This document shows, piece after piece, positions 2,773 through 54,471 of a stretch of 64,000 nucleotides of DNA; position 1 is the first letter of the stretch; each line of letters opens with the position of its first letter. This stretch comes from an uncultured Dehalococcoidales bacterium (lineage in GTDB: Bacteria > Chloroflexota > Dehalococcoidia > Dehalococcoidales > UBA2162): contig CAZBQL010000002.1 in assembly GCA_964493985.1 (NCBI GenBank), positions 2,824-66,823 of the forward strand, in the 5' to 3' direction. Below the pieces are notes generated by a model. The model saw only the letters and a program-made list of their open reading frames with translations. It searched no databases and was not told the origin of the DNA. The position numbers were made by a program, and so were the translations under genes.

Positions 2773-2780
2773 AAAAACGG

Positions 2781-6221: not shown

Positions 6222-6269
6222 AGAACATACAGCAGGATACAAAGGAAACATCAGGGGAAAGATAGCGTA

Positions 6270-8399: not shown

Positions 8400-8404
8400 A
8401 GCGG

Positions 8405-12180: not shown

Positions 12181-12183
12181 TAA

Positions 12184-22700: not shown

Positions 22701-24977
22701 ATGGATACGGTATATTCATTCAGAGATGGTTTTCACGACAAAGACCAGCTAGGGAACAAAGGTGCCAATCTTGTCATTATGAGCCAGTTAGGCCTGCCCG
22801 TACCCCCGGGCTTTGCGGTATCCATCGATGCCTATAAGAAATGGAAAGATACCGGTACGCTTCCCGAAAATGAAATCAAGCAATCAATGTCAATCCTGGA
22901 GACGGATATAGGGCGAGAGATGGGGCAGGGACTGGAAGTATCAGTACGTTCTTCTGCTCCTGTATCCATGCCCGGAATGATGGACACGCTGCTTAATATC
23001 GGAGACTACGCTAATATGCTGGCTGCCATCCGTCGTATATTTGAGTCGTGGGATAATTTAAGGGCTGTCGAATACCGGCGCCTGAACAATATACCAACCA
23101 CTCTTGGCACGGCGGCAGTCGTTCAAGCCATGGTCTACGGCAATCGTGACGAAAATTCCGGTACCGGAGTTGCCTTTTCCCGCAATCCCAACTCCGGCAT
23201 CAAGGATCTTTTTGGCGAATATCTTCGCCAAGCCCAGGGTGAAGCCATTGTTTCAGGAGAACGCACGCCTGAACCGATATCCGCTTTGAAGTCAGTCTTA
23301 CCTCAAGTTTTTGCAGAACTTCAGGAGATTGCTGATAGACTGGAGCGTCACTTCTGCGACATGCAGGACATCGAATTTACTGTTGAGTCCGGTAAACTGT
23401 ACATTCTTCAAACACGTACGGGAAAAAGGAGTGGATATGCTGCCATAAAGATTGCCACTGATCTGGTCTCGGAGGGTATCATCACGCGCCAGGAGAGCAT
23501 CATGCGTATTACAGTCAATGATATCCGTGGCCTTTTGCATAAACGTCTCACGGCGAACAGCTACAAGCCGTTTGCCAGGGGGCTTAACGCTGCTCCCGGG
23601 GCGGCCGCCGGGAAAATCGTTTTTGATGCGCATGATGCCCTGGCCATGGCCAGAAAAGGTGTACCGATTATCCTGGTACGCCCTGAGACGAATCCCGATG
23701 ATATACAGGGTATCGCCGCAGCTGATGGTGTCTTGACCTTACGGGGAGGTCTCACCTCTCATGCTGCTATAGTTACCCGCAGTATGGGTAAACCGTGCGT
23801 CTGTGGTGCGGAAGGTATCGGCATTAATCTGGAAACCCGACAACTGACCAGCAATAAAATCATGCTAAATGAAGGGGACGAGATAACTATCGACGGCACT
23901 GCCGGTGACATATTTCTCGGTATCCTGCCGCTTGAAGAGGCAAGCATGACCTCTGAGCTCGGGGAAATACTGAGTTGGGCAGACGGGTTCAAGAGACTCG
24001 GCGTCCGGGCCAACGCCGACACGCCTGAGATGATCGCCCAGGCAAGAAACCTGGGGGCGGAAGGTATCGGGCTGTGTCGTACGGAACGGATGTTCAACGC
24101 TCCCGAAAGACTCTCGGAAATACGTGAGTTCATTCTTGCCGGAAGCGATGCAGAGAGGAAGTCGGCAATCTCGCATCTCCTGGAACTACAGACTGAAGAC
24201 TTCACCGCTCTTTTCCGCGAGCTTCAAGGTCTTCCCATTATCGTCCGTCTACTGGACCTGCCGTTACACGAGTTTCTGCCGGGAGAAGCGACAGCAGATG
24301 ACCCGCGGATGAAACAACGCATCGAAGAGCTAAAGGAGATTAATCCGATGCTCGGTCACCGTGGCGTGAGGCTTGCCGTTACTACCCCTGAGATATACCA
24401 GATGCAGATAGAGGCTATCCAGCGAGCATGGAATCAGGTACCGGCGGACGTTTCTATCATGGTACCCCAGGTGGTCACCTCGCAGGAAGCATTGAATGTT
24501 AAAAGCCTGCTCAAAGGTGTAACTCTTAAATTTGGCGTGATGATAGAGACAGTACGGTCCTGCATGCGTGCCGAACGATTAGCCAAAGAGGTAGACTTTT
24601 TCTCATTTGGTACGAACGATCTCACCCAGGCAGTGTTTTCTTTCAGCCGGGAAGATGCCGAGAAAAAGTTCCTTTCGACGTACCTTGAGCTGGGCATACT
24701 CCTGGACAATCCCTTCGAGGTATTAGACGTGAATGGAGTCGGGCAACTCATGGAGACAGCCATATTCTGGGCAAGACGAGTGAAGAGGGACATAGAGATC
24801 GGCGTTTGCGGTGAGCAAGCCGGCGAGCCCCGGTCCATCAAATATCTGCATGGTATTGGAGTGGACTACGTCAGTTGCAGCCCGTTTCGAATACCCATAG
24901 CCAGGCTGGTAGCAGCCCAGAGTGCTATTGCTGGTAAAAAAGAAACATCACAAGTCGGTGCGGTCAGTGAAAAATAA
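22701..24977 (+). CDS. ppdK: Pyruvate, phosphate dikinase, compact form
   Basis: PPDK signatures are present: LGNKGANL, SVRSSAPVSMPGMMDTLLNIG, FESWDNLRAVEYRR, phosphohistidine loop RGGLTSHAAIVTRSMGKPCVCG, NADTPE, GIGLCRTERMF, FFSFGTNDLTQ, VSCSPFRIPIARL. At 758 aa it is short for the family (see finding). Confidence 0.85.
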   Translation: MDTVYSFRDGFHDKDQLGNKGANLVIMSQLGLPVPPGFAVSIDAYKKWKDTGTLPENEIKQSMSILETDIGREMGQGLEVSVRSSAPVSMPGMMDTLLNIGDYANMLAAIRRIFESWDNLRAVEYRRLNNIPTTLGTAAVVQAMVYGNRDENSGTGVAFSRNPNSGIKDLFGEYLRQAQGEAIVSGERTPEPISALKSVLPQVFAELQEIADRLERHFCDMQDIEFTVESGKLYILQTRTGKRSGYAAIKIATDLVSEGIITRQESIMRITVNDIRGLLHKRLTANSYKPFARGLNAAPGAAAGKIVFDAHDALAMARKGVPIILVRPETNPDDIQGIAAADGVLTLRGGLTSHAAIVTRSMGKPCVCGAEGIGINLETRQLTSNKIMLNEGDEITIDGTAGDIFLGILPLEEASMTSELGEILSWADGFKRLGVRANADTPEMIAQARNLGAEGIGLCRTERMFNAPERLSEIREFILAGSDAERKSAISHLLELQTEDFTALFRELQGLPIIVRLLDLPLHEFLPGEATADDPRMKQRIEELKEINPMLGHRGVRLAVTTPEIYQMQIEAIQRAWNQVPADVSIMVPQVVTSQEALNVKSLLKGVTLKFGVMIETVRSCMRAERLAKEVDFFSFGTNDLTQAVFSFSREDAEKKFLSTYLELGILLDNPFEVLDVNGVGQLMETAIFWARRVKRDIEIGVCGEQAGEPRSIKYLHGIGVDYVSCSPFRIPIARLVAAQSAIAGKKETSQVGAVSEK

Positions 24978-25022: not shown

Positions 25023-25730
25023 ATGACAACAACAGCTGAAAAAACATTAATAGCTAACGGACTTGAGAGGAAGAAACCCGTTATCCAGCAGAACATGATA
25101 TTATGGTCAGACCTCTACCCTTCCCGTTACGTATGGCACTACCAGAGGAGCCATCCATACCAGGTTCTCATCGGCGAGATACTGGTGGAGAAAACCAGGC
25201 ATGATGTAGCGACCATACACGAACGATTCCTTCAGTTCTTCCCTTCCTTCGCTGACCTGGCAGCAGCTGACGAAGAGAAACTAAGCGAAGTGCTTGTCAG
25301 TCTTCATCTGGAAGAGCATCAACGGTTGTTCAAACAGATAGTGAAGGGGCTGGCAACACTGGATGAACTGCCGCGTGATTATGATGGTATCGCCGAGATT
25401 TCCGGATTAAAACACGAAGGTATAAAGGCGATGCTATGTTTTGGGTACGGTTTACCCGTGGGCGTCGTTAACAAGCACGTTTTCAGAATGTTGACGCGAA
25501 TCTTTGCTAATGAACTTCCACCTTTACCGTCAGCCGGACTTATCGAAGCTATAGGAGAAAGCCTTGCGTTTGTCGCAGACCCGCAAAAGTATAATGGGGC
25601 AATGCTTGACGTAAGTGAATTGATATGCCGGTCTAAGGTCCCAAGCTGCCGGGACTGTCCGGTTTATTCTCAATGTGACTATGCAATCGATGTTCAGAAG
25701 TCAAAACCTCTGGTTCAAAAAGTAGCTTGA
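25023..25730 (+). CDS. HhH-GPD superfamily protein (MutY/Nth-like catalytic domain with [4Fe-4S] cluster loop)
   Basis: YQVLIGEILVEKTRHDVA resembles the MutY helix carrying the catalytic Glu. An HhH region follows. The C-terminal C-x6-C-x2-C-x5-C motif (CRSKVPSCRDCPVYSQC) matches the iron-sulfur cluster loop. No NUDIX-like C-terminal domain is present. Confidence 0.7.
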   Translation: MTTTAEKTLIANGLERKKPVIQQNMILWSDLYPSRYVWHYQRSHPYQVLIGEILVEKTRHDVATIHERFLQFFPSFADLAAADEEKLSEVLVSLHLEEHQRLFKQIVKGLATLDELPRDYDGIAEISGLKHEGIKAMLCFGYGLPVGVVNKHVFRMLTRIFANELPPLPSAGLIEAIGESLAFVADPQKYNGAMLDVSELICRSKVPSCRDCPVYSQCDYAIDVQKSKPLVQKVA

Positions 25731-25803: not shown

Positions 25804-27939
25804 ATGCCACGTGATTGCGGAACAGAAGTAAAACTACCGGAGCGAATAGACAGGCTCGATGAGCTTGCCTACAACCTCTGGTGGAGCTGGCACCCGGAAG
25901 CCCGTAATCTGTTTCGTAAATTGGACCATCCGCTCTGGTCAGAGAGTAACCATAATCCGGTAAAGCAACTCCGCGAAATCTCCGAACAGACATTGCAATC
26001 AGCAGCTTCGGATGAGCACTTTATCCGTTCATATGATGCCGTTATGGCTGCTTTTGACGCCGAAATGGCCTCCGTCGGTAACCGGATCGATAGCGGTAAC
26101 GACCATTTGCCGTTGGTGGCGTTTTTCTCCATGGAATTTGCCATCCATCAATCTTTACCGATGTATGCCGGCGGACTTGGTATCCTTGCCGGTGATATCT
26201 GTAAAGAAGCCAGCGACCTTGGTTTACCTGTCGTCGCTCTTGGGTTCATGTATCCGCAAGGATACTTCTTCCAGCGTGTTTCATCGGATGGATGGCAGGA
26301 AGAGGTATATCAGCTCCTTGATTTCAACACCGCTCCTTTGAGCTCTTGTCCCGACAGAGAAGGAAATGAACTGCTGCTGGAAATGCGGCTTGGTAATCAG
26401 AGACTACTTATTAAGGTATGGCTGGTCCGCATTGGTAAAATAAATCTCTACCTCCTGGACACTGATCTGGTGGAAAATACTCCGCAAGACCGGCTGCTTA
26501 CCGCACGTCTATACACTGCTGATAAAGAACAGAGGTTAAAGCAGGAAATGGTGCTTGGCATTGGCGGTGTCCGGGTCTTACAGGCACTTGGACTTGAACC
26601 TTCGGTCTGGCACGCGAATGAAGGACATACTTCTTTCATGATGCTGGAGCGGCTGCGGCAGGAGGTGGAGAAAGGTTCCTCCTTCTCTGAAGGAATGAAT
26701 AAGGTACAAACGACAACGCTTTTCACCACTCATACGCCGGTAGCAGCCGGTCACGATGTTTTTCCTGTATCCATGGTGCACAGGCATCTTAGAGACTGTT
26801 TTGGAAAGGATGAATCATACTGGCAGGAATTTCTGGACCTGGGTAAATATCCAAACGTAAATGATGGCAACTTTAACATGACCGTCCTTGGTTTCAGATT
26901 ATCCGGTATTCGTAATGCCGTCAGTGCAATCCACGAAAAGACCAGTCAAACAATGTGGCAGCCTGTCTTGTCTGCGACTACCGAAAAAACTGAACCGATC
27001 ACCCGGGTAACTAACGGCGTACATCTGCCCACATGGATCGCCCCGGAAATGAGCGAGTTATACGCCAGACATCTGGGTACCAGCTGGCTGGAAGCACAGG
27101 ACGACGCCAAACTGTGGGAAAAAATAGAATCAATCCCTGATGAAGAATTATGGGCGGTCCGGCAGGTATTAAAAAGAACTCTGGTCCAAATAATGCTGGC
27201 GCGTAACAGGGAGTGTTCCAGCACGCGCGTATGCAGTGCCGACCAGGTATTAGCTCGAGGAGCCATGTTTGACGTCGATACATTAACTATTGGTTTTGGC
27301 CGGCGATTTACCGAATACAAGCGACCGGAGTTAATTTTGAGTGACACCCAACTCCTGAAAAAGATTCTGACTGACCAAAAGCGGCCTGTACAGCTTGTAT
27401 TCGCCGGTAAATCTCATCCGGCGGACTTTGCTTCTAAAAGCCTTCTCAATAGAGTGTATGCGTCAGCGCTGGACCGAAATTTTGAAGGGCGGATTGCATT
27501 CATCGAGGACTACGATATCCACCTGGCACATAACCTTGTATCAGGAGTCGATGTCTGGCTTAACACGCCGCGCAGACTTGAAGAAGCCTGCGGTACCAGC
27601 GGAATGAAAGCCGCACTTAACGGGACGCTTAACTTCAGTGTGCCCGATGGATGGTGGTACGAAGTTTTTAATCAGTCTAATGGCTGGATAATTGGTAACT
27701 TTGATAAGCCAAAAGAGTTATCGCAAGAGGATATTGAAGATGCCCGTTCACTATATGAGACCTTGGGTAACAGCATAATACCGCTTTATTATGAACGTGA
27801 CCGCGCCGGAATTCCACATGGCTGGGTCCGCATGATCAAAGACTCTATCTGCTCGATCGTACCGCGAATTTGTGCTCGCCGGATGATGCATGAATATTAC
27901 AACCTGTATCGCGCCCTATCTCTAAATAAATATAAGTAA
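25804..27939 (+). CDS. glgP: Alpha-glucan phosphorylase (GT35, short maltodextrin-phosphorylase type)
   Basis: ELAYNLWWSWHPEARNLF is the N-terminal signature of the short alpha-glucan phosphorylase family. YAGGLGILAGD, TTHTPVAAGHD and EACGTSGMKAALNG (pyridoxal-phosphate Lys region) are also present. Confidence 0.85.
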   Translation: MPRDCGTEVKLPERIDRLDELAYNLWWSWHPEARNLFRKLDHPLWSESNHNPVKQLREISEQTLQSAASDEHFIRSYDAVMAAFDAEMASVGNRIDSGNDHLPLVAFFSMEFAIHQSLPMYAGGLGILAGDICKEASDLGLPVVALGFMYPQGYFFQRVSSDGWQEEVYQLLDFNTAPLSSCPDREGNELLLEMRLGNQRLLIKVWLVRIGKINLYLLDTDLVENTPQDRLLTARLYTADKEQRLKQEMVLGIGGVRVLQALGLEPSVWHANEGHTSFMMLERLRQEVEKGSSFSEGMNKVQTTTLFTTHTPVAAGHDVFPVSMVHRHLRDCFGKDESYWQEFLDLGKYPNVNDGNFNMTVLGFRLSGIRNAVSAIHEKTSQTMWQPVLSATTEKTEPITRVTNGVHLPTWIAPEMSELYARHLGTSWLEAQDDAKLWEKIESIPDEELWAVRQVLKRTLVQIMLARNRECSSTRVCSADQVLARGAMFDVDTLTIGFGRRFTEYKRPELILSDTQLLKKILTDQKRPVQLVFAGKSHPADFASKSLLNRVYASALDRNFEGRIAFIEDYDIHLAHNLVSGVDVWLNTPRRLEEACGTSGMKAALNGTLNFSVPDGWWYEVFNQSNGWIIGNFDKPKELSQEDIEDARSLYETLGNSIIPLYYERDRAGIPHGWVRMIKDSICSIVPRICARRMMHEYYNLYRALSLNKYK

Positions 27940-32705: not shown

Positions 32706-34499
32706 TTATGCACTGCCGGCTTTCGTTAGCGTAGCGCCTGTAATCTGCTTTGTTAAAATCCCTTTTGGTGCATATAAAGCCTCTCTAAGGTAATTAAAGG
32801 AGAAAGCAGAGCCGGGCGACCCACCGCTAACAAAGAAGTGAATACATTCCGGCGAAACAAGAACAGGGACCACCTCTCCCGGATTTAGCGCTTTTTCAAA
32901 AACAGGTCTTCGATCTGCGGGAATTGCCCCATTTTCGATTGCCTGTTGAATACCTTTCTTATCGTCCTCATTGAGGTCTTCATACCTCACTGCAATTCTT
33001 CGATATAGCTCGTTTCTAAGACTTTCCTGGTCGTAGCCCATCTTATTCAATTCACTAACCAGTTCGGGGAACAGAATAATATAATGATTGTTGGTTACTT
33101 TCTGAAGGACCATTCCCGTAATTCCCCAGCGGGGGAACAACCAGCGGTCGGTAAATATCAAACGGGCAACAATATTATCCAGTATCGAATCTGCTGTCCA
33201 GGTCCCGATCATACCTCCGTAGTGATTGGTCTGAGGGGTGGCGTTTGATACTGTAGCGACAGTGACGCAGCTGTCATCCGGTTGAAAACCCTGAGTCGTA
33301 TGGTAAGGTAGCCAGGGGTTTGCGTCGTTCTCCGTAAAAGTATAAAAAATATGCGGGTTTACCCTTCCGGTAATGGCCATATCATTCAAACCGGGCCAGG
33401 TCCGACCGATATTGAGTGTCACCAATCTCACAGCACGCCCGATCGAGCTGTTCGCCCGCCAGCCATGCCCGAGGAAGCCGATTCCGGAATTCATATTGAT
33501 TTCTTTTCCCATCGGACCTGATACCACTATCATAAAAGAGAAAGAACCTGCCGAAGTAAGGACATGAAGGTGGTCGAAATCCGGATCAAGTATTATTTCC
33601 ACGGCAGTTATGATTACCGGAAAGTATTCAGGTCTTGCTCCCGCCATTACAGCGTTTATAGCGATTTTTTCTATAGTAGCTGTGCCTAACTTAGGTTTCA
33701 TCTTGCCAATCACTTCATCAGGAGAACGCTTTGTTCCGGAAAGCATCCACTCAACATGTTCGGGAGTAGGAGGTACCAGGGGCAGTCCATCACCCCAGCC
33801 TTTGGAGAGATAATCTTGACCGAATTCCTCGCAGACCATCGGGATAAACTCTGAGATGTATGTAAGTGTACCTGGTCCGTCTTCGTCAATTTCCTGTGGA
33901 GGCGTGTTTGTTTCTTCCGGTGTCAGAGGAATGGTTAATGCGTCGATAAGATCGTCAAACACTGCTTCCACAAGCGGTCTTATTGTATCTATGGTCCCCC
34001 GTAGTTTATAAAATTCAGATGATTTAATTTGTCGATGACGGAAATTGGGCATAGAATGATCGCCTGCTGCAGAAATCGCATCGAAATTAAAAGTATCACA
34101 ATTAATAAATACGCCAGGTTTACCCATTCTCTCCAGCTTTACTGTACCGGCAACGCCGGTATACGTGCAGGAACCTCAATCTCCAACCCCGTAAATAAAG
34201 GTATCGATCTGAGAACCCCACTCATTTGCGTTTTTATCATTTATCAGGTAATCACCCGATAAATAGATTGTCTTCGCAGTGGGATATTTCCCTTTTAACA
34301 GTTCCGCGAATACCGTGTAAAATCTATCTACTCCATCTTTCCCATTCGAGTATAAGCCCACTGTTTTACCTTCCAGGCTATCGATACGTGGTGCAGGCGC
34401 ATAGGTCGGGGACGATTCAACTACTCCGCGGGGATTAAGAACTTCTATTTTTTCTATTTTACTCACTTTGGACCTCGAACTTTTTCTTGAGTATACCAT
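32706..34499 (-). CDS. Putative selenoprotein: UGSC-motif domain fused to a ~430-aa conserved uncharacterised domain (in-frame TGA at 34176-34178 read as Sec)
   Basis: Track ORFs 34176..34499 and 32706..34127 share one frame and are separated only by a TGA. Hand translation across the junction gives ...FIYGVGD-U-GSCTYTGVAGTVKLERMGKPGVF... A hairpin lies 14 nt downstream of the TGA. The likely true start is GTG 34466 (GAGG 6 nt upstream). See finding. Confidence 0.65.
34145..34161 (-). promoter_or_regulatory. Candidate bacterial SECIS stem-loop
   Basis: On the minus-strand RNA, UACCGGC-GUU-GCCGGUA forms a perfect 7-bp stem with a 3-nt G/U loop. It starts 14 nt 3' of the in-frame UGA. Confidence 0.45.
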
Positions 34500-34560
34500 T
34501 AACTATTGGGAAGAGTTAAAATCAAATAACAATAATACACTGATCGAAGGAGACGAAATT

Positions 34561-37124: not shown

Positions 37125-37182
37125 CAAATTGAGTATACAAGAAAGTTATAACTTATTAACAGTTTGTGAAAAGGACGACAAT

Positions 37183-37533
37183 ATGAAAATAACGAGAATG
37201 TACACCGGTGAGGATGGCGAATCCCATTTCGAAGACATCGATATCTCTTTGGGCAGTCCTGACAAATCCGACCGACGGTCGGAACTTATTAAAGCAACAG
37301 GTATCATCTTCAGGGAGACCGGAGGTGATTACTCTCTGAAATTCCACAACGCACCGCGCCGCCAGTTTGTAATCAACCTTGAAGGCTCTGTAGAGATAAT
37401 TTTGGGTGACGGGTCAAGCCGGATACTCGGACCTGGAGAAATCCTCCTGGCGGAAGATACCACCGGTAGAGGACACATAAGCCGAGCCGTCAACAACCAG
37501 TCAAGAAAGTCTATCTTTGTTACTCTTGACTGA
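37183..37533 (+). CDS. Small cupin-like protein of unknown function
   Basis: Length is 116 aa from ATG 37183. It is beta-rich with a G-x-x-x-L-x-ED-x-G-x-GH pattern (GPGEILLAEDTTGRGH) reminiscent of a cupin fold. This is a weak assignment. Confidence 0.45.
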   Translation: MKITRMYTGEDGESHFEDIDISLGSPDKSDRRSELIKATGIIFRETGGDYSLKFHNAPRRQFVINLEGSVEIILGDGSSRILGPGEILLAEDTTGRGHISRAVNNQSRKSIFVTLD

Positions 37534-40320: not shown

Positions 40321-42675
40321 TTAATCAGCACGACAGCCCAGAACGGCTCTTTTCACCAGAATTTTCGCTATCTGAATCTTGTATGTGTTATCCGGGAGTG
40401 GACATACATCTTCAACAGCAATATTGCCGGCTGCTTCGGCAGTAGTATCATCGATACTTTTTCCCGTTAAATACTGCTCTGCGCTGACAGCCCGGTAAGG
40501 TGTATTATATACTGCATTCAGGCATATTCTCGACGACGTAACAGTCCCGTTTTCAATCTCAAGCGCTACCGCGCAATTTAGTATTGAAAAATCGATAGAT
40601 TTCCTTAAGGCAAACTTGATGAATTTACTCCTCGCCCCGTTTTTCATCGGTGGTAACTCTATTTCCGTTATTATTTCATTTTCGATTATCGTCGTATTAT
40701 CGCCTTTTACCGTGAAGAAATTTTCCGCATCGATCACTCTCCGGGTGGTCCTGATTTTAACGTCAAGGGCTATAAGCACCGGGGCAATATCAGATGAGTT
40801 GACCGCCAGACAACCGCAGTTGAAACACCTGCCGGCTTCTTCCATTACCTTTTCCTTTTCCATGTTTCCGGTCTCTTCCAACTCTATATTCTTTACCCGC
40901 TCGGATACGGATAGTCCGGAGACATCGTTCCGGGCGGTCGGTCGCAGGTAATCCTTATCGAATTTTTCCGGATGGGTACTATCTGTATCCTGATATTTTC
41001 TAATTCCTTTCCCACCGAGATAACGGTCAATAGACTCGGCGGTATTCCTTCCTGAGGTTATTGCCTCTATAACTGTTGACGACCCGGTTACGCAATCACC
41101 TCCGGCAAAGATATTAGCGTCCAGTAAACCGTCCATATTGACTTCAAGACGGTCATCCGAACCAAGTAATTCCGCCGGTAAAATCGAATAATCCGGCACC
41201 TCGCCCGTAGCCTTTATAACAGCATCGTATTCGACAGTAAATTCAGAACCCTCGACAGGTTCAGGTCTTGGTCTGCCACTTTCATCGGTAGCACCAAGTT
41301 TCATCCTGGTACACTCAAGTACAATGTTCCCTTCTTGACCTTTTGCCGAAACCGGAAGTGTCAGGAACTGCATTTCAATGCTTTCCTCTTCCGCCTTTAT
41401 TATTTCCTCTTCGATCGCAGGCATTTCTTCGCGACTGCGACGGTAGAGTATTACCGGTTCTGCTCCCAGTCTCAAGAGAGTCCTGGCAACATCTATTGCC
41501 ACATTGCCGCCACCCATCACGGCTACTTTTTTCCCTGAAGATTCACCGATTATTTTATTATTTCTGAGGAATTCAGTACCCGAAACCATCAGTTCTTCGC
41601 CCCTTATTCCGAGGGGTCTCTCTTTCCAGGCACCCGTCGCCATGAATACGGCATCGTAATCTCCTGATATCTTCCTGATATCCTCGATTCTGCCGTCAGC
41701 AGGTCCTGTCCTGAAAATAATACCTGACTCTGCCAGTGCCGATATCTGTTTTTTTACAATATCTTTCGGCAGGCGGTATGGAGGGATACCGTACGTCAGC
41801 ACTCCTCCCGGTTCTTCCATAGCCTCGAAGACGGTCACGCTATATCCAGTCTTTCTGAGATACCAGGCGCATGAAAGTCCTGCCGGTCCTGAACCGATTA
41901 CGGCTACTGTTCCATTATTCTCTACTTCAGGAGGTCTATAAATCGACTTCGAATTCTCAAGGGCGTAATTGCCAATATACCTTTCGATATTCCTGATTGA
42001 TACGGCTTCGTCCAGTTCATCTCTGTTACAGACACTTTCACAGAAATGAGGACAAACCCTCCCGGTTATCGCCGGAAACGGATTCGAGTCCACTAGTATT
42101 TTTACTGCGCTGTCAATATCTCCCTCTCTCAGCTTACTCATGTAATCCGGGATATTTACGCCGGCAGGGCATTCGGTAACACATGGAGTATCATTCATCC
42201 TTGTGCTGCCGAAGATGGAATGATATCTACCTTCGCCGGCATAGGCATAACACCTTTTTCCGCCCTTTCTGATACAGTAAAACCTGTTATCCGGCACCCA
42301 GTAGTACCAGCACCTGTTACTCTGGCAGATATTTCCTGCAATCGTTCCCTGTTCCCTGATATGAGGTGAAGCGGTTTTCGCAGCAGCTTCGGCAAGAGCG
42401 GGATAGCTTTTCTTAACCTCTGAATTCCGGGCAATATCTTCAAGCCTGGTAAGAGCGCCGATTTTCAGGAAGTTGTCTTCTTCCTTTATATAGTCCAGTT
42501 CGTCAATTTTCTTGATGTTTATAAGTACTTCGGGATATTCGGGCAATATGTTATCTTTCATCTGCCCGAGAAGGTCAGTACCACCGGCTATTACTTTCGC
42601 TTTGCTTCCATATTCCTCGATCGCCTGGGCTGCTTCTTCAAGTGACGTCGCGTTAATATGTTTGAATCTCTTCAT
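40321..42675 (-). CDS. Molybdenum-hydroxylase FAD subunit (CoxM/HcrB-like) interrupted by a GltD-like [4Fe-4S]/FAD/NAD(P)H oxidoreductase module
   Basis: The N-terminus KVIAGGTDLLGQMK is followed by a Cys-rich stretch CQSNRCWYYWVPDNRFYCIRKGGKRCYA. GltD signatures follow (NPFPAITGRVCPHFCESVCNR, VAVIGSGPAGLSCAWYL, KVAVMGGGNVAIDVARTL). The sequence then returns to a CoxM middle/C-terminal domain (CFNCGC..., RSKFIKFALRKSIDFSILNCAVALE). Confidence 0.8.
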   Translation of the reverse strand: MKRFKHINATSLEEAAQAIEEYGSKAKVIAGGTDLLGQMKDNILPEYPEVLINIKKIDELDYIKEEDNFLKIGALTRLEDIARNSEVKKSYPALAEAAAKTASPHIREQGTIAGNICQSNRCWYYWVPDNRFYCIRKGGKRCYAYAGEGRYHSIFGSTRMNDTPCVTECPAGVNIPDYMSKLREGDIDSAVKILVDSNPFPAITGRVCPHFCESVCNRDELDEAVSIRNIERYIGNYALENSKSIYRPPEVENNGTVAVIGSGPAGLSCAWYLRKTGYSVTVFEAMEEPGGVLTYGIPPYRLPKDIVKKQISALAESGIIFRTGPADGRIEDIRKISGDYDAVFMATGAWKERPLGIRGEELMVSGTEFLRNNKIIGESSGKKVAVMGGGNVAIDVARTLLRLGAEPVILYRRSREEMPAIEEEIIKAEEESIEMQFLTLPVSAKGQEGNIVLECTRMKLGATDESGRPRPEPVEGSEFTVEYDAVIKATGEVPDYSILPAELLGSDDRLEVNMDGLLDANIFAGGDCVTGSSTVIEAITSGRNTAESIDRYLGGKGIRKYQDTDSTHPEKFDKDYLRPTARNDVSGLSVSERVKNIELEETGNMEKEKVMEEAGRCFNCGCLAVNSSDIAPVLIALDVKIRTTRRVIDAENFFTVKGDNTTIIENEIITEIELPPMKNGARSKFIKFALRKSIDFSILNCAVALEIENGTVTSSRICLNAVYNTPYRAVSAEQYLTGKSIDDTTAEAAGNIAVEDVCPLPDNTYKIQIAKILVKRAVLGCRAD

Positions 42676-42681
42676 ATGCTT

Positions 42682-45135
42682 CTATGCCTTTCCCAGCGCT
42701 TTCAATACCTTATCGGGCGTCATCGGCAGGTCCTGAATCCACATTCCTATGGCGTTATGCACTGCGGGGATTATAAGCGTAGGCACTATTGTTGCTACAT
42801 CCTCACCGATGCCAACCAGACCATACGGACCGTATCCCATTCCGGTCTCTACCAGGAGAGTATCTATCGGCCCGATGTCCAGCATTGTCGGGATCTTATA
42901 ATTCAGCAGGTTGCCGTTCAGCATGACTCCAGTCGACTTGTCGTAGACGACTTCTTCGCTACGTCCTCTGCCTACCGCCATGCAGGTACCGCCATACTGC
43001 TGACCTTCGCAGCCGTCCCAGCTTATAACCTTGCCTACGTCGTTAACATTGACAACCCTTGTTATGTCAACCTCACCTGTATCGGTATCAACCTCCACCT
43101 CCATAAAGTGTGCCTGGCGGCAAAGTCGCAATCGAATTCCGGCATAAGCTCCGGTCTGCATCTGCCAGCTATATTCGAAGAACGGTTCCCTGTAAGGATA
43201 TCCCTGTTCTTCATCGGGAGATTTAACCGGTTCGCCCTTGGGAGCGGTCAACGGTCCCATTGCCCCCGAGGGCCCGATAAACTCAGCCATCGAAATATTA
43301 TTTTCAGGGTGTGCTATTTCAAAGATAATACTGTCCTTTATATCGAGTTCTTCGGGTTTCTTACTTGGGAAAGCAGGAGGAAAGCTGCCAAGTTGTGTTA
43401 CGCCGGTGGGGCTTGTTGCCGCTTCAAGTACTTTTCTTCTAAGGAGTCGGGCGGCATTCCGTATGGCGTAACCGTTTACCGACATGTTTGTCGAGGTATC
43501 GGGTGTCATGGTGAAGAAGCCTGTGTCATGGTGTGGACGGTAATAGACGTCTTCCATTTTCATTCCCAGCTCATCGGCAGCTATCTGGCAGTAGGAAGTC
43601 TCAGCGTTCACGCCCACATCGGCTCGGCATCCGTAGATACAGGCTGTTCCGTCATTACGTTCAAGACGAATTGCTATTTCACTCGACCCTGCCGAATCGT
43701 CCCATTCATGACTCCATGCAAAACCAATACCGTGCATCTTTCCGTTGGGCAGCTTCTTTGTCCCGGGCGTGTGCCATCTTTCATCCCAGTGTATTGCTGC
43801 TTTGCCTTTTTCAATACATTCTCTGAGGCTGTCCCTGGCAGGGAAACCCATTTTCACTTTCTGCTCGTTGAGCCATTCCATATCATGGCCTTCGGCGCCA
43901 TCGTTCTTGAGAGCAACCTCTATAGGGTCCATACCGAGAACATCTGCAACACGATTGAATACCAGCGTGATGCTGTGACAGTTTGCATTCTGCTCACAGC
44001 GTGTTGGTACGGTCGGGCCTTTATTAACCTTGACCGCTTCAGTCTTCCCATAAATATTGGGGATTCTGGTGTTGTCCATCAGGTGTTTAACGATGCCGAA
44101 AACCGGCATTGTCTGGTTCACCATAACCGCTCTCGCCTGGACGGCGGTTATGGTACCGTCCATTTTCATGCCTACTTTATAATAATAGACCCCTATATCC
44201 ATTTCGCCGCCATAAAAGTCTTCCCTGCGGCTGAATGTCCACTTGACCGGCCTGCCCGTCCGCCTGGATATAACGGCAGCGCAGTAATGCCCGCCCAGGT
44301 TCCAGGCCATCTGGCTCCACCCACCGAAACTGGCTCCCTGGTAGAGGCAGTGCACCTGGATATGATTCATTGGTATTCCACCGAACCAGGTTGATACAGC
44401 TCGTTTGGCAATATGCGGTCGCTGTTGCTTTACCCAGAGCTCAGGATATTCACCATTCCAGGTAAACACACCGCAGGGACATTCCGGTCCTATCCAGGTA
44501 TTAAGCCCCTGGACGAACTTGAATTCGATTATCTTGTCGGCTTCAGAAAAACCTTTCTCAACGTCTCCCTGGGATTCAACCGACGTCTCCTGGCCGTAAA
44601 GGTTGCCGTCAGGATTCTCCTCCGGGTTTGCTAGAGGCGAGTCCGACTCAAGGGCTTTTTCCGGGTCGAGTACAAAGGGGCGTTCTTCCCACTCTACTTC
44701 TATCAGTGCCAATGCTTCCTGAGCAATTGCCTCTGTATCGGCTGCCACCGCCGCGCCTGCTTCCTCACCCTGGAAATGGGCTATATGAGGTATGGAAGGT
44801 TCTGCCGAAGGCTCATGCCCACCCACATCGACTGTCGCAGGCAGCTCCGGATCGTCATATCTCAACACCATCCTTACTCCGGGAAATGCTTCTGCTTTAC
44901 TTGTGTCCATTTTTTTAATCTCAGCATGAGGGTAAGGACTGGTCAGGAATCTCATATACAACATACCCGGCAGGTGTACATCCATCGTATATACGGCTTT
45001 TCCGCTGGCTTTCTCGTATCCGTCTATCTTCCTTATGCCGCGTTTTCCTATGCTGCGATATTGTTCCAGGGGATATTTATCACTCCTCAGGTTATCGAAC
45101 TGCTCACTGATTTTAGACATTTCATTGCCGTTCAT
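42682..45135 (-). CDS. Molybdopterin-binding large subunit of a xanthine-dehydrogenase-family hydroxylase/reductase
   Basis: The Ald_Xan_dh N-terminal domain is present (IDGYEKASGKAVYTMDVHLPGMLYMRFLTSPYPHAEI), followed by FGG, EQNANCH and GIGED-type segments. Length is 817 aa. It sits between the 2Fe-2S and FAD subunit genes. Confidence 0.85.
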   Translation of the reverse strand: MNGNEMSKISEQFDNLRSDKYPLEQYRSIGKRGIRKIDGYEKASGKAVYTMDVHLPGMLYMRFLTSPYPHAEIKKMDTSKAEAFPGVRMVLRYDDPELPATVDVGGHEPSAEPSIPHIAHFQGEEAGAAVAADTEAIAQEALALIEVEWEERPFVLDPEKALESDSPLANPEENPDGNLYGQETSVESQGDVEKGFSEADKIIEFKFVQGLNTWIGPECPCGVFTWNGEYPELWVKQQRPHIAKRAVSTWFGGIPMNHIQVHCLYQGASFGGWSQMAWNLGGHYCAAVISRRTGRPVKWTFSRREDFYGGEMDIGVYYYKVGMKMDGTITAVQARAVMVNQTMPVFGIVKHLMDNTRIPNIYGKTEAVKVNKGPTVPTRCEQNANCHSITLVFNRVADVLGMDPIEVALKNDGAEGHDMEWLNEQKVKMGFPARDSLRECIEKGKAAIHWDERWHTPGTKKLPNGKMHGIGFAWSHEWDDSAGSSEIAIRLERNDGTACIYGCRADVGVNAETSYCQIAADELGMKMEDVYYRPHHDTGFFTMTPDTSTNMSVNGYAIRNAARLLRRKVLEAATSPTGVTQLGSFPPAFPSKKPEELDIKDSIIFEIAHPENNISMAEFIGPSGAMGPLTAPKGEPVKSPDEEQGYPYREPFFEYSWQMQTGAYAGIRLRLCRQAHFMEVEVDTDTGEVDITRVVNVNDVGKVISWDGCEGQQYGGTCMAVGRGRSEEVVYDKSTGVMLNGNLLNYKIPTMLDIGPIDTLLVETGMGYGPYGLVGIGEDVATIVPTLIIPAVHNAIGMWIQDLPMTPDKVLKALGKA

Positions 45136-45136
45136 A

Positions 45137-45640
45137 TCATTTCCCCTCTTTGTGAAGTATACTGGCTGCTTCCTTCACAGCTTTGATGTGCTGCGGGTAT
45201 GTCCCGCACCGGCAAAGATTACCGGCGAGAGCTTCCTTGATTTCATCCACCGTTGGTGAAGGATTCCTGTCCAGCAATGCTTTAGCCGTGACGACAAAAC
45301 CGGGTGTGCAGTACCCGCATTGCATTGCGCTGTGTTTAACATACGTTTCAACAAGAGGATGCTGCTCGCGTGCTATACCTTCTATCGTTTCAATATTCTT
45401 ACCGCCACATTCTATAGCCAGTGTCATGCATGAAAGGACAGGCCTTCCCTCCATGATAACAGTGCAGGCACCACAGGCACCTTCATCGCAAAAAACCTTG
45501 GTACCCGTAAGGCCCAGCACATCGTGAATGACATACTGTAAAGTCCAGTTTTCCTGTACTATTACTTCATGTTTTTCGCCGTTGACGATAAGACTAATTT
45601 TCATCTCTGACATCGTACCTCTATCTTCTTTTTCGGACAT
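45137..45640 (-). CDS. [2Fe-2S]x2 small subunit of the molybdenum hydroxylase (CoxS/HcrC-like)
   Basis: CDEGACGACTV (plant-type 2Fe-2S) and QCGYCTPGF...CRCGTY (second 2Fe-2S) are present. ATG 45613 is an alternative start. Confidence 0.9.
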   Translation of the reverse strand: MSEKEDRGTMSEMKISLIVNGEKHEVIVQENWTLQYVIHDVLGLTGTKVFCDEGACGACTVIMEGRPVLSCMTLAIECGGKNIETIEGIAREQHPLVETYVKHSAMQCGYCTPGFVVTAKALLDRNPSPTVDEIKEALAGNLCRCGTYPQHIKAVKEAASILHKEGK

Positions 45641-45928: not shown

Positions 45929-48598
45929 CTAAAGGTCAAGTACTATCTTAGTCTCTTCGTTAGACAATTTTTCAAATCTACATCCTAACCGCCTGGCCAG
46001 GCCTAATGCCCGGTCATTTTCGTTAAGAACGGTGCCATAAACGCTAGCTAATTGCTTTTCCCGAGCTATCCCAACGATGATATCACATAACTTCAATCCC
46101 AGACCTACACCTTCAAAATCCTGGGCTACAATCCAGGCAAATTCACCTGAATCTTTACCAACAGGTACCGATAAAGAGCCTATACCCACAATACGATGTT
46201 CTTCAGCAGAGTTGTATTCAGCAATAATTGCCATTTCACGGTCATAATCGATATTGCACAAAAGGGTAAGCATATCGTGAGTCATCTCTTTAATTGCATG
46301 TGTAAAGCGATAACGTAAGGCCGTTTCCGAAAGGTTTTCAAAGAGATTCTTCTCAAGTATTTCATCGTCCGGTTTGACCGGTCTGAGGATGACCTGCCGG
46401 CCATCTTTGCTGGTCCACGGCTGAACGTAATGGGCGGGATACGGCATGATAATCAGATGAGGGTATTTCGATCCATCATCATCAATCGAGTCAGGATCTA
46501 AAATTATCCGTGTATCTAGAGCAGCAAGTTTTCCGTCACTCACAACAAGAGGATTTATGTCAATTTCTTTTATTTCCGGGAAATCAACAATCATGTCCGA
46601 TACCTTAACAAGAACATCATCAAGAAGACGTAAATCAATCGGCGGATTACTGCGAAAACCGTCACGTAACATGTTATAAATTCTCGTTTTTTCTATTATC
46701 CGTCTGGCCAGTATCTGGTTTAAGGGAGGTAATCCGGCAGCAACATCCTTGAAATACTCGGCTTCTACTCCGCCCCTGCCAAACATTATAACCACGCCGA
46801 AAACAGGGTCCTTTTTACATCCAATAATGAATTCGTAATCCGGAGTGTCCACCATCTTTTGTACGACGATTCCTTCGATATGACAGTCAGCATAATTCTT
46901 CATAACATTGGCAACAATTTTGTCATATTTGTCCTTTACCTCTTCATTTGATTGAATATTAAGAGCTATTCCTCCGATATCCGATTTATGGATAATATCC
47001 GGCGAAGAAACCTTGAGTGCTACCGGATACCCTATCCGGTTGGCTGCAATTACTGCAGCGTCCGGACTGGTTACTAATTCTTGAGGAGGGAAAGGAATAG
47101 AATACGTACTTATCAAGCGACGGGTATCTTCAGGATTTAAGAATGTGACCCGGTCTCGCAATAAGTGATTAATAATCGCTTTTATATGGTTTTTATTGAC
47201 ACCGATAATCGGATGTTCGCTAGGGGTTTCATAAAGCATTTCAAGATTACGAGTATGATTGTATATATAAAGGCAGGTACGAACAGCGTCTTCAGGATAC
47301 TCAAAAGTTGGAATTCGGTTATTACTAAAAATCTGCCTGGCTTCTGCTACATCATCACCCCCTATAAAGGAGGTGAGAATCGGTTTATTACTTTTCTTGG
47401 CTAGTTCAACTATAGCGTTCGCCAGGGCTACGGCTTCAGCTATTCCCTGCGGAGTAAAAATAACCAGGATACTGTCCACATTGCTATCTTTTATTACTAT
47501 TTCAATCGCCTTCATAAACCGCTGATAATCTGCATCCTCACGGATGTCTACAGGATTTGTTTTACTCCACTTCTCAGGAATTAACTGGTCCAGAGTGCCA
47601 ATGGTCTCTTCACTCAACGTAGCTAAAACTCCACCACGACTAATAAGAATATCTGTAGTAATCGCGGCAGGCCCTCCGCCGTTAGTAATAATAGCAAGCC
47701 TGTTGCCTTTGCATAAATGAATTGCATTCATCATAGATGCACAGTAAAATAGGTCTTTCATTTCTTCTACGCGTATGATTCCAGCACGCTGGAATAAGGC
47801 ATCATAATAGATATCTTCGCCCATTAGAGCTCCGGTGTGCGTCTTTGCTACGGCTACAGCTTCCTGTGATTTTCCCGGTTTAAGTGTTATTATGGGTTTA
47901 TTACGAGCAAACTCACGGGCTGCGCTCGAAAATTTCCGGGCATTTCCAATTGATTCTGGGTAGATAATGATACTTCTTGTTTCCGGATCTTGACCGAAAT
48001 AATCAATTACTTCAGCAAAATCTACCCCGGCCATAGAACCAAGAGATACGTAAGCACTAAACCCGATATTCTTACTTATCGCCCAATCAAGAATCCCTGA
48101 ACCGAGGGCACCACTTTGTGAGATAAAGGCTACATAACCAGGTTTGGGCATTTTCTGGATGAATGTAGTGTTAAGATTGGCACTTGGTCTAATAACACCC
48201 ATGCAATTAGGACCCATGATTTTAAGTTGATACTGATTAGAAAGTTCTATCAATTTCTCGTGGCGGTTAAGACCTTCATCCCCAATTTCACTAAATCCTG
48301 ATGATACAATGATCAGGGCTTTGACCCCTGCCTGTCCACATTCATCAACAATATCAACGACAGTATTAGCAGGTGTTATTATTACCGTTAAATCCGGTAA
48401 CTCCGGTAAAGAGTGAATAGTAGGATAACACTTGAGATCAAAGACAGAATCACGATTGGGGTTAACGGGATATATCTTTCTGCTATCATGAGCAAGCAAC
48501 AGATTTTCCAGCGTAATTCGCCCTGCCGCCCCTTCACGGTCTGTACTCCCCACAAGTGCAACACTTCGAGGATTAAAAAACGATCTCATCTCATCCAT
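45929..48598 (-). CDS. ADP-forming acetyl-CoA synthetase-like / GNAT acetyltransferase fusion (Pat/PatZ-type protein lysine acetyltransferase architecture)
   Basis: The N-terminal CoA-binding domain is FFNPRSVALVGSTDREG..YPVNP. Succinyl-CoA-synthetase-like flavodoxin and ATP-grasp regions follow. The C-terminal GNAT core is VAQDFEGVGLGLKL. Length is 889 aa. Confidence 0.85.
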   Translation of the reverse strand: MDEMRSFFNPRSVALVGSTDREGAAGRITLENLLLAHDSRKIYPVNPNRDSVFDLKCYPTIHSLPELPDLTVIITPANTVVDIVDECGQAGVKALIIVSSGFSEIGDEGLNRHEKLIELSNQYQLKIMGPNCMGVIRPSANLNTTFIQKMPKPGYVAFISQSGALGSGILDWAISKNIGFSAYVSLGSMAGVDFAEVIDYFGQDPETRSIIIYPESIGNARKFSSAAREFARNKPIITLKPGKSQEAVAVAKTHTGALMGEDIYYDALFQRAGIIRVEEMKDLFYCASMMNAIHLCKGNRLAIITNGGGPAAITTDILISRGGVLATLSEETIGTLDQLIPEKWSKTNPVDIREDADYQRFMKAIEIVIKDSNVDSILVIFTPQGIAEAVALANAIVELAKKSNKPILTSFIGGDDVAEARQIFSNNRIPTFEYPEDAVRTCLYIYNHTRNLEMLYETPSEHPIIGVNKNHIKAIINHLLRDRVTFLNPEDTRRLISTYSIPFPPQELVTSPDAAVIAANRIGYPVALKVSSPDIIHKSDIGGIALNIQSNEEVKDKYDKIVANVMKNYADCHIEGIVVQKMVDTPDYEFIIGCKKDPVFGVVIMFGRGGVEAEYFKDVAAGLPPLNQILARRIIEKTRIYNMLRDGFRSNPPIDLRLLDDVLVKVSDMIVDFPEIKEIDINPLVVSDGKLAALDTRIILDPDSIDDDGSKYPHLIIMPYPAHYVQPWTSKDGRQVILRPVKPDDEILEKNLFENLSETALRYRFTHAIKEMTHDMLTLLCNIDYDREMAIIAEYNSAEEHRIVGIGSLSVPVGKDSGEFAWIVAQDFEGVGLGLKLCDIIVGIAREKQLASVYGTVLNENDRALGLARRLGCRFEKLSNEETKIVLDL

Positions 48599-51646: not shown

Positions 51647-52012
51647 TTGAAATATTTGGCAGAGGATGAAAAACAAACAAGAAATTTTCCTCCTATTGCG
51701 CAGATTTTAAAGGAACTTGATAAAGACCTGAGAGTCGATACCATTGAAAAGGTACCCATTAAAAAGAAATCAGAGCAGCCTTCAGGGAAAGAGGCAATAC
51801 TTGCAGTTCTAACTCGAGCTGCTGATGACAACAAATTCCTGGCAAGGCTGGCAGAAGACCCCGGAAAAGTTCTTAGCGAGTATAACCTGACCCTGGAAGA
51901 AAAAGCAGCTCTTGGATCGGGTGATATTCTCCGGATCGAATCATGGGTAGGTAAGCTTGATACGCGATTATGTACATGGATTACCTGCCGTCTTCAGCAG
52001 GAAAAATGGTAA
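51647..52012 (+). CDS. Small protein whose C-terminal ~72 aa duplicates the C-terminal tail of the downstream FdhA (LigA-like helical domain)
   Basis: A strong SD (AGGAGG 51633-51638) precedes TTG 51647. The track start is GTG 51629. By my count, 52 of the last 72 aa are identical to FdhA residues encoded at 57214-57429. Confidence 0.55.
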   Translation: MKYLAEDEKQTRNFPPIAQILKELDKDLRVDTIEKVPIKKKSEQPSGKEAILAVLTRAADDNKFLARLAEDPGKVLSEYNLTLEEKAALGSGDILRIESWVGKLDTRLCTWITCRLQQEKW

Positions 52013-52016
52013 AAGA

Positions 52017-52559
52017 ATGGCGAGAACAATGAGCATATCTGAAACTGCAAGCAGGGATACTCAAACAATTCTGAAAGATGAACAGGCAATTAATGGTCGG
52101 TTAGATGAAATTTTAGCTTCGTATCGGGGAGATAAATCCGAACTGGTCTCCATTTTGCAGCATGTACAGCAGGATATGGGTTATCTGGCTGAAGACGTTT
52201 TAGGCCGAATAGCCAGATTTGTTGACACGCCGGCAAGTACCGTGTTCGGCGTAGCGACCTTCTATACTCAACTCAAGTTGAGACCGATCGGGAAAAACGT
52301 CATCAAGGTATGCCGGGGGACAGGCTGCTATGTTAAAGGGTCTCCTCAGATACTTGCGGAACTTGAAAAACACCTCGGCATTCAAGATGGAGAAACAACG
52401 GAAGACATGGAATTCACCCTGGAAACCGTTGCCTGCTTCGGTGCCTGTGCGCTGGCACCTGTAATGGTAATCAATGATGAGGTTTACGGGAAAATGACCG
52501 TCGATAAAGTAAAACAAATACTGGATACCTATAAAGAGAAGAAACCGAATGAAAAATAA
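52017..52559 (+). CDS. NuoE/HydC/FdsG-like [2Fe-2S] thioredoxin-fold subunit
   Basis: VFGVATFYTQLKLRPIGKNVIKVCRGTGCYVKG...TLETVACFGACALAPVM is the NuoE cluster-binding pattern. The start is ATG 52017. Confidence 0.85.
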   Translation: MARTMSISETASRDTQTILKDEQAINGRLDEILASYRGDKSELVSILQHVQQDMGYLAEDVLGRIARFVDTPASTVFGVATFYTQLKLRPIGKNVIKVCRGTGCYVKGSPQILAELEKHLGIQDGETTEDMEFTLETVACFGACALAPVMVINDEVYGKMTVDKVKQILDTYKEKKPNEK

Positions 52560-54429: not shown

Positions 54430-54471
54430 TACAGGTATTGAAAGGGCAAGATATACTGGAGGTAATCGAAA

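Follow-up and report, generated by a model that had tools for sequence, protein, structure and literature searches.

The UGSC-containing protein was named in 2007 as a selenoprotein of unknown function (PMC1976440). In the Global Ocean Sampling (GOS) study it ranked with the most abundant families of selenoproteins, with 255 selenocysteine (Sec) forms against 21 Cys forms, and was described as likely thioredoxin-like (PMC2398784); a review from 2026 still has it among the families without a characterised function. Its classical form (Zhang & Gladyshev 2007/2008; Pfam PF24696; NCBIfam NF041046) is a stand-alone protein of about 150 amino acids (profile length 147) in which the motif U-G-S-C follows a beta-strand ending in G-x-G-D. 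A 'UGSC/Unknown_1 fusion' was reported in 2008 (GOS selenoproteome, Fig. S1A; PMC2398784); in it UGSC is joined to a conserved but functionally unassigned domain that occurs in a limited set of aquatic organisms. The gene described here lies on the minus strand of a 64,000-nucleotide stretch of DNA from an uncultured Dehalococcoidales bacterium (GCA_964493985.1, contig CAZBQL010000002.1; hereafter, the window) and is an addition, in a fused architecture, to this already known selenoprotein family. It shares the U-G-S-C motif after a strand ending in G-x-G-D, but its product of about 590 amino acids likewise joins the UGSC domain to a conserved partner domain of unknown function, which could be Unknown_1 or another domain. 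That the gene is decoded with Sec and yields a single fused protein appears nearly certain; the fuller account, in which two apparent open reading frames (ORFs) are one gene whose UGA is read as Sec through a SelB-type selenocysteine insertion sequence (SECIS) to give a product of two modules, is very probable and is the best explanation overall. The features that carry this account are as follows.

32706..34499, minus strand: the whole candidate selenoprotein gene, one frame with a single internal TGA and the stop codon TAA at 32706-32708.
34023..34445, minus strand: UGSC redox domain, matched by Pfam PF24696 (E = 1.8e-21) over residues 19-159 of the maximal frame of 597 codons.
34176-34178, minus strand: in-frame TGA, codon 108, predicted from the homologue column to encode Sec as residue 1 of the U-G-S-C redox motif.
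34145..34161, minus strand: bacterial SECIS-type hairpin UACCGGC/GCCGGUA with loop GUU, proposed from folding, covariation and the criteria of the bacterial SECIS (bSECIS) model.

A preliminary reading made from the letters of the DNA (the sequence-only reading) had noted two ORFs in one minus-strand frame, 34176..34499 (107 amino acids, ending ...IDTFIYGVGD) and 32706..34127 (473 amino acids), with a lone TGA between them. Analysis of the window reproduced all of these coordinates and lengths: the TGA at 34176-34178 is the sole stop separating the two ORFs, and there is no further disruption of the frame. The 48 nt from the TGA to the downstream ORF translate as GSCTYTGVAGTVKLER, giving U-G-S-C, as that reading had proposed, when the TGA is decoded as Sec; the predicted junction peptide of the read-through product is ...IDTFIYGVGD-U-GSCTYTGVAGTVK (starting ...GVGD-U-GSCTY...), and its total length, anticipated at about 590 amino acids, is 586-597 depending on the start codon.

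The read-through product matches PF24696 with 77.5 bits (cut-off 25) over profile positions 1-144 of 172, and the match runs through both the TGA (codon 108) and an internal ATG (codon 125). The U/C-G-S-C motif by which the PF24696 family is recognised is present as GVGD-[TGA]-GSC, in a column occupied by U or C in homologues, and the same model also matches 45 of 70 aligned family members. The NCBIfam equivalog NF041046 (147 amino acids) is matched over profile positions 1-115 of 147 (E = 3.6e-15, 56.3 bits), and distant full-length fusions score 33-45 bits against it; the small stand-alone architecture of NF041046 is not shared by the product of about 586-597 amino acids, which carries an extra domain of about 380. 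An orthologue 78% identical to the window protein (P0005; such labels denote protein relatives) bears the NCBI name 'UGSC family (seleno)protein [Dehalococcoidales bacterium]'. Membership of the UGSC family, first suggested from the motif and from the upstream part, is supported by the PF24696 match across the TGA, by the NF041046 match (below the equivalog cut-off) and by the shared N-terminal signature 'LNPRG...GK.IG'. The full-length protein has no match to a thioredoxin-family Pfam model, and no match to GRDB (PF07355) was obtained with the full-length protein at E <= 1 or among the 70 family members. The N-terminal domain of the AlphaFold2 model of the relative P0034 has a low-confidence fold, with a predicted local distance difference test score (pLDDT) of about 25-65.

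In a scan of one genome per species, relatives turned up at 575 loci or more, and the 80 best of these were aligned by tblastn (labels such as L027 denote homologous genome loci). These 80 align query residues from about 18 to 595 as a single unit, and they derive from Dehalococcoidales and other Dehalococcoidia, Acidobacteriota (Acidiferrales), Deltaproteobacteria/Thermodesulfobacteriota, Anaerolineales, Phycisphaerae and one gammaproteobacterium. At the 76 sites read in the TGA column, the codon is TGA in 59, Asn in 8, Ser in 7 and Ala in 2; TAA or TAG occurs at none of them. The Asn, Ser and Ala paralogues are also without the second Cys ('GVGDNGMGGW', 'GVGDSGQGAW'), and two TGA forms (L027, L029) have lost the second Cys while keeping Sec (U-G-T/S-F-T). 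The sequence-only reading had proposed looking for homologues continuous across the junction with Cys or Sec at this position, and both kinds exist: in addition to the 59 TGA forms, Cys occupies the column in P0034, an uninterrupted protein of 582 amino acids that reads '...IDTFIYALGD-C-SSC-TFSGVTGTVKLEKMGKPGVF...' (L081/P0034, codon TGT), and in distant uninterrupted fusions recovered by exhaustive search, of which P0187, P0207 and P0218 read 'GD-C-GSC-T' and P0270 has CGGC at the aligned position. A protein search returned 3,097 relatives, most of which are 470-500 amino acids long and start with 'VAGTVKLEK...' or 'MGKPGV...' just past the stop, as would be expected of gene callers unable to read a Sec codon; a word-based search with the N-terminal domain returned mostly fragments truncated at the TGA. 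Global recoding of TGA was considered and ruled out, TGA being the terminator of 10 of 37 ordinary window genes, and the 64-kb window contains no paralogue and no further credible gene with an in-frame TGA.

A second Sec-containing branch of the superfamily occurs near the main gene at several loci, where its motif is either 'GH-U-S(T/S/A)-C-(A/S)P' or else 'NAG-U-GGC' (L017 at about 1851; L027 at 3120-3680; L036 at 3313-2846 on the minus strand; L025 at 14230-14592). Non-Sec 'GIGQLDTCAP' counterparts stand divergently beside redox-dead forms with the 'GVGDNGMGGW' motif in L037, L040, L051, L053 and L076, and up to six pieces of the family are found at one locus (L016).

The bSECIS model describes an apical loop of 3-9 nt, a stem of 4-16 bp, a distance from UGA to loop of 16-37 nt and an MFE (minimum free energy) no higher than -7.5 kcal/mol, with G within the loop's first two positions, as a rule GG or GU (PMC13188914). 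Downstream of the TGA, the sequence-only reading had drawn a 7-bp stem UACCGGC/GCCGGUA with a GUU loop, 14 nt past the UGA, and exactly this element was recovered: the stem is perfect, and the hairpin agrees with the bSECIS model in all four respects (loop GUU, 7 bp, 21 nt from UGA to loop and -10.8 kcal/mol for the local 30-nt fold), as do the MFE folds of 39 of 48 distinct Sec-form homologues. In these four respects the element resembles the bSECIS consensus of the Escherichia coli fdhF type; it differs in lying wholly inside the coding sequence of a conserved peptide, in having two stem solutions across phyla and in having no Rfam match, a scan of the window at the gathering threshold having returned none.

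Comparison among homologues supports the hairpin as an RNA structure. When 27 distinct sequences are aligned in register, 90.5% of the cells form pairs, versus 21-61% in controls with the 3' arm slid by 1-3 nt; double-sided changes number 13, against 4.2 expected, a count reached by none of 500 shuffles. Pair 19:33 is GC in 19 sequences, AU in 4, GU in 2 and UA in 1, and pair 22:30 is GC in 25 and AU in 2. Covariation at 19:33 couples a change of codon 6 from Val/Ala to Thr/Ser with a synonymous substitution in the Gly codon that lies four codons further on; because an amino-acid change is coupled to a synonymous one, selection at the protein level is insufficient as the sole explanation. Acidobacterial orthologues encode another peptide here (CTWWGSHD), yet form the stem GUGGG-GUU-CCCAC 2 nt nearer the UGA. 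The median local folding energy of 42 Sec forms is -10.6 kcal/mol and that of 17 non-redox paralogues -4.3 kcal/mol (Mann-Whitney p = 7e-9); the hairpin has decayed in L081, the Cys form, where the value is -3.0 kcal/mol. On this comparative evidence the hairpin is a predicted SECIS element, and actual insertion of Sec is predicted for the source organism. A gene for tRNA-Sec lies about 1.3 kb downstream of the orthologue on one homologous contig (L025) and about 4.3 kb upstream on another (L049), and metagenome-assembled genomes of Dehalococcoidia are among the most selenoprotein-rich of bacteria, with 46-49 selenoproteins each (PMC13326102).

The remainder of the read-through product consists of a linker and the partner domain:

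33912..33941, minus strand: conserved linker 'ALTIPLTPEE' joining the two domains, common to all paralogue classes.
32709..33845, minus strand: unnamed partner domain of about 380 amino acids, with no named relative, a confident AlphaFold2 model and invariant columns.

The C-terminal part had been described from the sequence alone as a large domain that could not be named and looked like a conserved hypothetical family. That description stands, except that the domain spans about 380 rather than about 430 amino acids. No Pfam or NCBIfam model matches it in the window protein, in 70 family members or in distant and stand-alone relatives. When 1.84 billion representatives were searched exhaustively with HMMER, 4,279 clusters (50% identity) matched at E <= 1e-3, 2,768 of them at E <= 1e-10, and every source name among the relatives is 'hypothetical protein'. 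The domain occurs in fused proteins of about 570-610 amino acids, in stand-alone proteins of about 350 and in forms of 700-990, some of which have two copies of a core of about 200 amino acids, or fn3 domains. Structure prediction, which had been suggested as a check, gave a confident AlphaFold2 model of the 473-residue piece of the window protein (pLDDT 83, predicted TM-score 0.84), for which, as for the P0034 model, Foldseek found no relative in the Protein Data Bank (PDB); hmmsearch of the profiles against PDB sequences returned nothing. Foldseek's top match to the window piece, 7xky_A, an alpha subunit of class I fumarase (E = 0.043, TM = 0.24/0.34), was not trusted. An alignment at 28-36% identity reveals an invariant core, DG(L)PxxPPT ... 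AxNxVMAG..P...P ... R-A..L...N.G ... E...W, which contains no invariant Cys or His.

Stand-alone partner-domain genes for which upstream DNA is available have two small ORFs matching the Pfam UGSC model directly 5' (L083, L084/L085, L087, L089). Translation of L083 and L084 indicates that the small ORFs are one stand-alone UGSC selenoprotein gene of about 190-200 amino acids, with an in-frame TGA and a hairpin of its own and with a junction that reads '...TGSGD-U-GSCTSWSVHDAIE...'; the pairs at L087 and L089 were seen as called ORFs only. That the two modules are fused in some genomes and neighbours in others is evidence, of a classical kind, for a functional partnership, and from this gene organisation the partner domain is predicted to be an obligate partner of UGSC domains, whether by fusion or by adjacency. 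At one locus (L089, 3183-4177), genes for HypA and a CobW/HypB-type GTPase, both of nickel metallochaperone types, lie directly 3' of the split UGSC/partner pair, a possible link to metal.

A survey of gene neighbourhoods, also suggested from the sequence alone, found that a thioredoxin reductase (TrxR)-like gene adjoins many orthologues, though not the window gene. This TrxB-like gene is directly downstream in the nearest of the orthologues from Dehalococcoidia (L001, L004-L011, L035), in Thermodesulfobacteriota (L027) and at the Cys locus L081, and it encodes a protein of 306 amino acids with a CAFC motif and a full-length match to TIGR01292 (E = 1.4e-92, 310 bits; equivalog cut-off 343). 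It adjoins 12 of 60 loci with the redox motif (11 TGA loci and L081) versus none of 17 redox-dead loci (hypergeometric one-sided p ~0.04, the loci being phylogenetically non-independent). In the window, the genes downstream of the selenoprotein gene encode a major facilitator superfamily transporter and an SdhA/AprA-like flavoprotein, and a divergent cluster encodes a short-chain dehydrogenase/reductase (SDR), an acyl-CoA ligase, a cupin-like protein, a second SDR, a phosphotriesterase (PTE)-lactonase and a third SDR. Neighbours at other loci include TRAP or SBP_bac_5 transporters and URO-D-like, FAD_binding_2 and MTS methyltransferase genes; acidobacterial neighbours include pyrroloquinoline quinone (PQQ) dehydrogenases, a rhodanese, a Trx-like protein and a cytochrome c. 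Transport and the metabolism of small molecules are the usual setting.

An apparent triple fusion of UGSC, partner domain and TrxB at L011 was rejected as an artefact of a masked run of N (about 11750-11850) that creates an 812-residue frame. A protein of about 180 amino acids is encoded beside UGSC-fusion genes at 13 loci (L003, L004, L011 and 10 others), typically just upstream; it has cupin-like motifs ('HVHKYDEFLIFLG', 'IPRGVLHCP') and no Pfam match.

Two groups of described redox systems invite comparison. The glycine and D-proline reductases are Sec enzymes that rely on the thioredoxin system. GrdA/GrdB and PrdB offer an analogy of logic only, with Sec beside a resolving Cys, re-reduction of the TrxR type and a setting in the catabolism and transport of small molecules; they have no sequence relationship to the proteins described here, no pyruvoyl-forming subunit was identified here, and the partner domain is unrelated to named families. 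The PrdB motif has been given as UxxC (PMC2398784). Trx/TrxR pairs, the fused NTRC and AhpF similarly place a CxxC-type dithiol module beside a low-Mr TrxR homologue with its own CxxC (CAFC in the present case), but sequence comparison does not show the UGSC domain to be a thioredoxin, and the domain is tethered to a specific partner instead of acting as a general reductant.

By analogy with these systems, the protein might function as follows: electron transfer from NAD(P)H, via the TrxR-like flavoprotein, to the U-x-x-C pair; cycling of the Sec/Cys pair between selenol/thiol and selenenylsulfide; action of the selenol, as reductant or as nucleophile, on a small organic substrate that has been imported and is bound by the partner domain; and resolution of the intermediate by Cys as a selenenylsulfide, with re-reduction of the pair by the TrxR-type flavoprotein. 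In this specific form the mechanism is tentative, with somewhat less than an even chance of being correct, and the direction of electron flow, the class of substrate and a catalytic role for the partner domain are all conjectural parts of it. More doubtful is the broad proposition that UGSC, the partner domain of about 350-380 amino acids and (in many lineages) a dedicated TrxR-like flavoprotein constitute a previously undescribed Sec-dependent reductase system acting on imported small organic compounds, whose partner domain would represent a new fold among enzymes and which would be widespread and paralogue-expanded in anaerobes (Dehalococcoidia, Acidobacteriota, Desulfobacterota, Firmicutes).

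Several points weigh against Sec decoding and the proposed chemistry. Among the annotated ORFs of the 64-kb window there is no selA, selB or selD, and ARAGORN found no tRNA in the window, hence no tRNA-Sec; moreover, the FdhA encoded there (54472-57432, TIGR01591, 844 bits) has Cys at the position of Sec in E. coli FdhF ('CARLCHAST'), so that the window holds no independent proof of Sec use. The hairpin by itself does not differ significantly from shuffled sequence, either as the 30-nt fold (z = -1.41, 18 of 200 shuffles doing as well) or as a 66-nt fold (z = -0.55), and is not unusual for a G+C-rich coding stretch. The stable SECIS fold expected from the sequence alone is upheld by the bSECIS model and by covariation and not by single-sequence folding statistics, and the case rests on comparative evidence: the TGA column, the covariation and the absence of the hairpin from non-Sec forms. 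The read-through protein, at 56.3 bits, misses the NF041046 equivalog cut-off of 125 bits; it is a member of the UGSC domain family but no equivalog of the small stand-alone protein. The partner domain shows no recognisable fold or catalytic motif. The redox pair has been lost in whole branches of the family, so not every member can depend on redox chemistry at the motif. The TrxB adjacency comes mostly from one lineage, plus L027 and L081, and shared synteny could be part of its cause; within the window no TrxB-like gene occurs anywhere.

The loss of the redox pair is in keeping with an alternative in which the protein is a selenoprotein but UGSC is a redox switch, or a thioredoxin-like accessory that regulates or matures the partner, whose own chemistry would be non-reductive. 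Branches with a redox-dead N-terminal domain (N, S or A in the Sec column and no second Cys) retain both domains, and Cys is not among the residues that are invariant in the partner domain (D, T, N, R, E, W), as this alternative would have it. However, the dedicated TrxR-like gene stands behind redox-active forms only, Sec is costly and in known cases typically catalytic, and the redox-dead paralogues, which are often beside other paralogues, could be non-catalytic subunits. We consider this alternative unlikely, although it is the strongest competitor of the reductase proposal.

Another explanation assigns to the Sec/Cys pair the binding of a metal or of sulfur or selenium species, making the protein part of a trafficking or detoxification module with the partner domain, as opposed to a reductase of organic substrates. 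Its attraction lies in the neighbours (HypA and CobW/HypB-type genes behind the pair in L089, recurrent SBP_bac_5 transporters, and rhodanese and Trx-like genes as conserved neighbours in Acidobacteriota) and in the 2026 review, which ascribes metal binding to many selenoprotein families. Each of these neighbours is confined to one lineage, however, and no conserved cluster of His or Cys extends across the superfamily in the partner domain, leaving a distinctly poor probability for this explanation.

A far less credible view denies Sec decoding altogether and takes the TGA as a genuine stop, with the 107-residue fragment and a 473-residue protein started independently at ATG 34127. There are two candidate start sites to consider, the first of which belongs to the whole gene:

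34464..34476, minus strand: putative GAGG ribosome-binding site (34476-34473) with GTG (34466-34464) as probable start codon, from reading of the sequence.
34125..34134, minus strand: internal GGAG (34134-34131) and ATG (34127-34125), a gene-caller restart and probably no functional start.

The maximal frame opens at ATG 34499 and has 597 codons, and a start at GTG 34466 would give 586. GAGG sits 6 nt 5' of GTG 34466. The N-termini of homologues extend 7-9 residues ahead of 'LEVLNPRG', and a promoter-like match (34519..34490) overlaps ATG 34499; on these grounds GTG 34466 is preferred, and the product is likely to have 586 rather than 597 amino acids. As for the internal site, the sequence-only reading had pointed out a GGAG 3 nt before ATG 34127 and had kept independent initiation in play. 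The GGAG and ATG are present (34134-34125), public gene calls show exactly such two pieces, and the window shows no Sec machinery. Against this, both pieces are broken halves of one Pfam domain, and a product begun at ATG 34127 (codon 125) would start midway through the UGSC domain; the residue aligned with Met125 in 48 Sec-form homologues is M in 10, L in 16, S in 7, T in 6, A in 6 and Y in 3; and the GGAG is a Leu-Glu codon pair within the conserved peptide 'LEK/R'. Because the Met is poorly conserved and internal to the domain and the GGAG encodes conserved residues, an independent start is unlikely, and together with the conservation across phyla of the TGA column, its flanks and the covarying hairpin, and with Cys homologues that are uninterrupted across the junction, this makes a genuine stop very improbable. 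Hardly worth entertaining is a pseudogene, or a sequencing or assembly error in a Cys codon: a single base change would turn TGT or TGC into TGA, but TGA stands in the same column of 59 independent assemblies, the hairpin is retained in TGA forms and decayed in the TGT form L081, and the frame is otherwise undisrupted.

Reading the two ORFs as one Sec-decoded gene has consequences for annotation, in that the window gene and thousands of relatives are split or truncated at the Sec codon in public databases, most of the matches obtained here beginning at 'VAGTVKLEK' or at the internal Met. In the literature searched, we did not find a description of the obligate pairing of UGSC with a huge unnamed family, of the split into redox-active and redox-dead forms or of the TrxR-like neighbour. 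These three features open the function of UGSC to experiment, and an abundant orphan family can be recast as a testable three-part redox system (UGSC, partner domain and TrxR-like gene). Were the Sec-dependent reductase proposal true, a function would be assigned for the first time to an orphan selenoprotein family that is among the most abundant.

Elsewhere in the window, two ORFs (25023-25730, 235 amino acids; 37129-37533, 134 amino acids) have no Pfam match at normal thresholds, the only hints being weak ones to HhH-GPD (E = 0.003) and Cupin_2 (E = 0.005). An alpha-glucan/glycogen cluster (787-16976) encodes a GlgE-like maltosyltransferase, an alpha-amylase-family protein of 1146 amino acids, MalQ, a GlgB-like branching enzyme, a GH57/DUF3536 protein and further GH13 proteins; it is followed by genes for two phosphoenolpyruvate (PEP)-utilising enzymes of the pyruvate phosphate dikinase (PPDK)/PEP-synthase type, less than 5 kb apart (18195-20606 and 22701-24977), and by a glycogen-phosphorylase-like gene (25804-27939; DUF3417 and Phosphorylase). 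On the minus strand, 40321-45640 encodes a molybdoenzyme of the xanthine dehydrogenase family with 2Fe-2S, molybdenum cofactor (MoCo) and unusual 784-residue subunits, the last of which joins FAD_binding_5/CO_deh_flav_C to Fer4_20 and Pyr_redox_2 in a manner resembling NADPH-dependent glutamate synthase, and 45929-48598 encodes an ADP-forming acyl-CoA synthetase of 889 amino acids with a C-terminal GNAT acetyltransferase, a Pat-like architecture. NuoE-like and NuoF-like genes precede that of the Cys-type formate dehydrogenase alpha subunit (51957-57432), and a second NuoG/FdhA-like molybdopterin oxidoreductase is encoded behind a two-component system (60922-63606).

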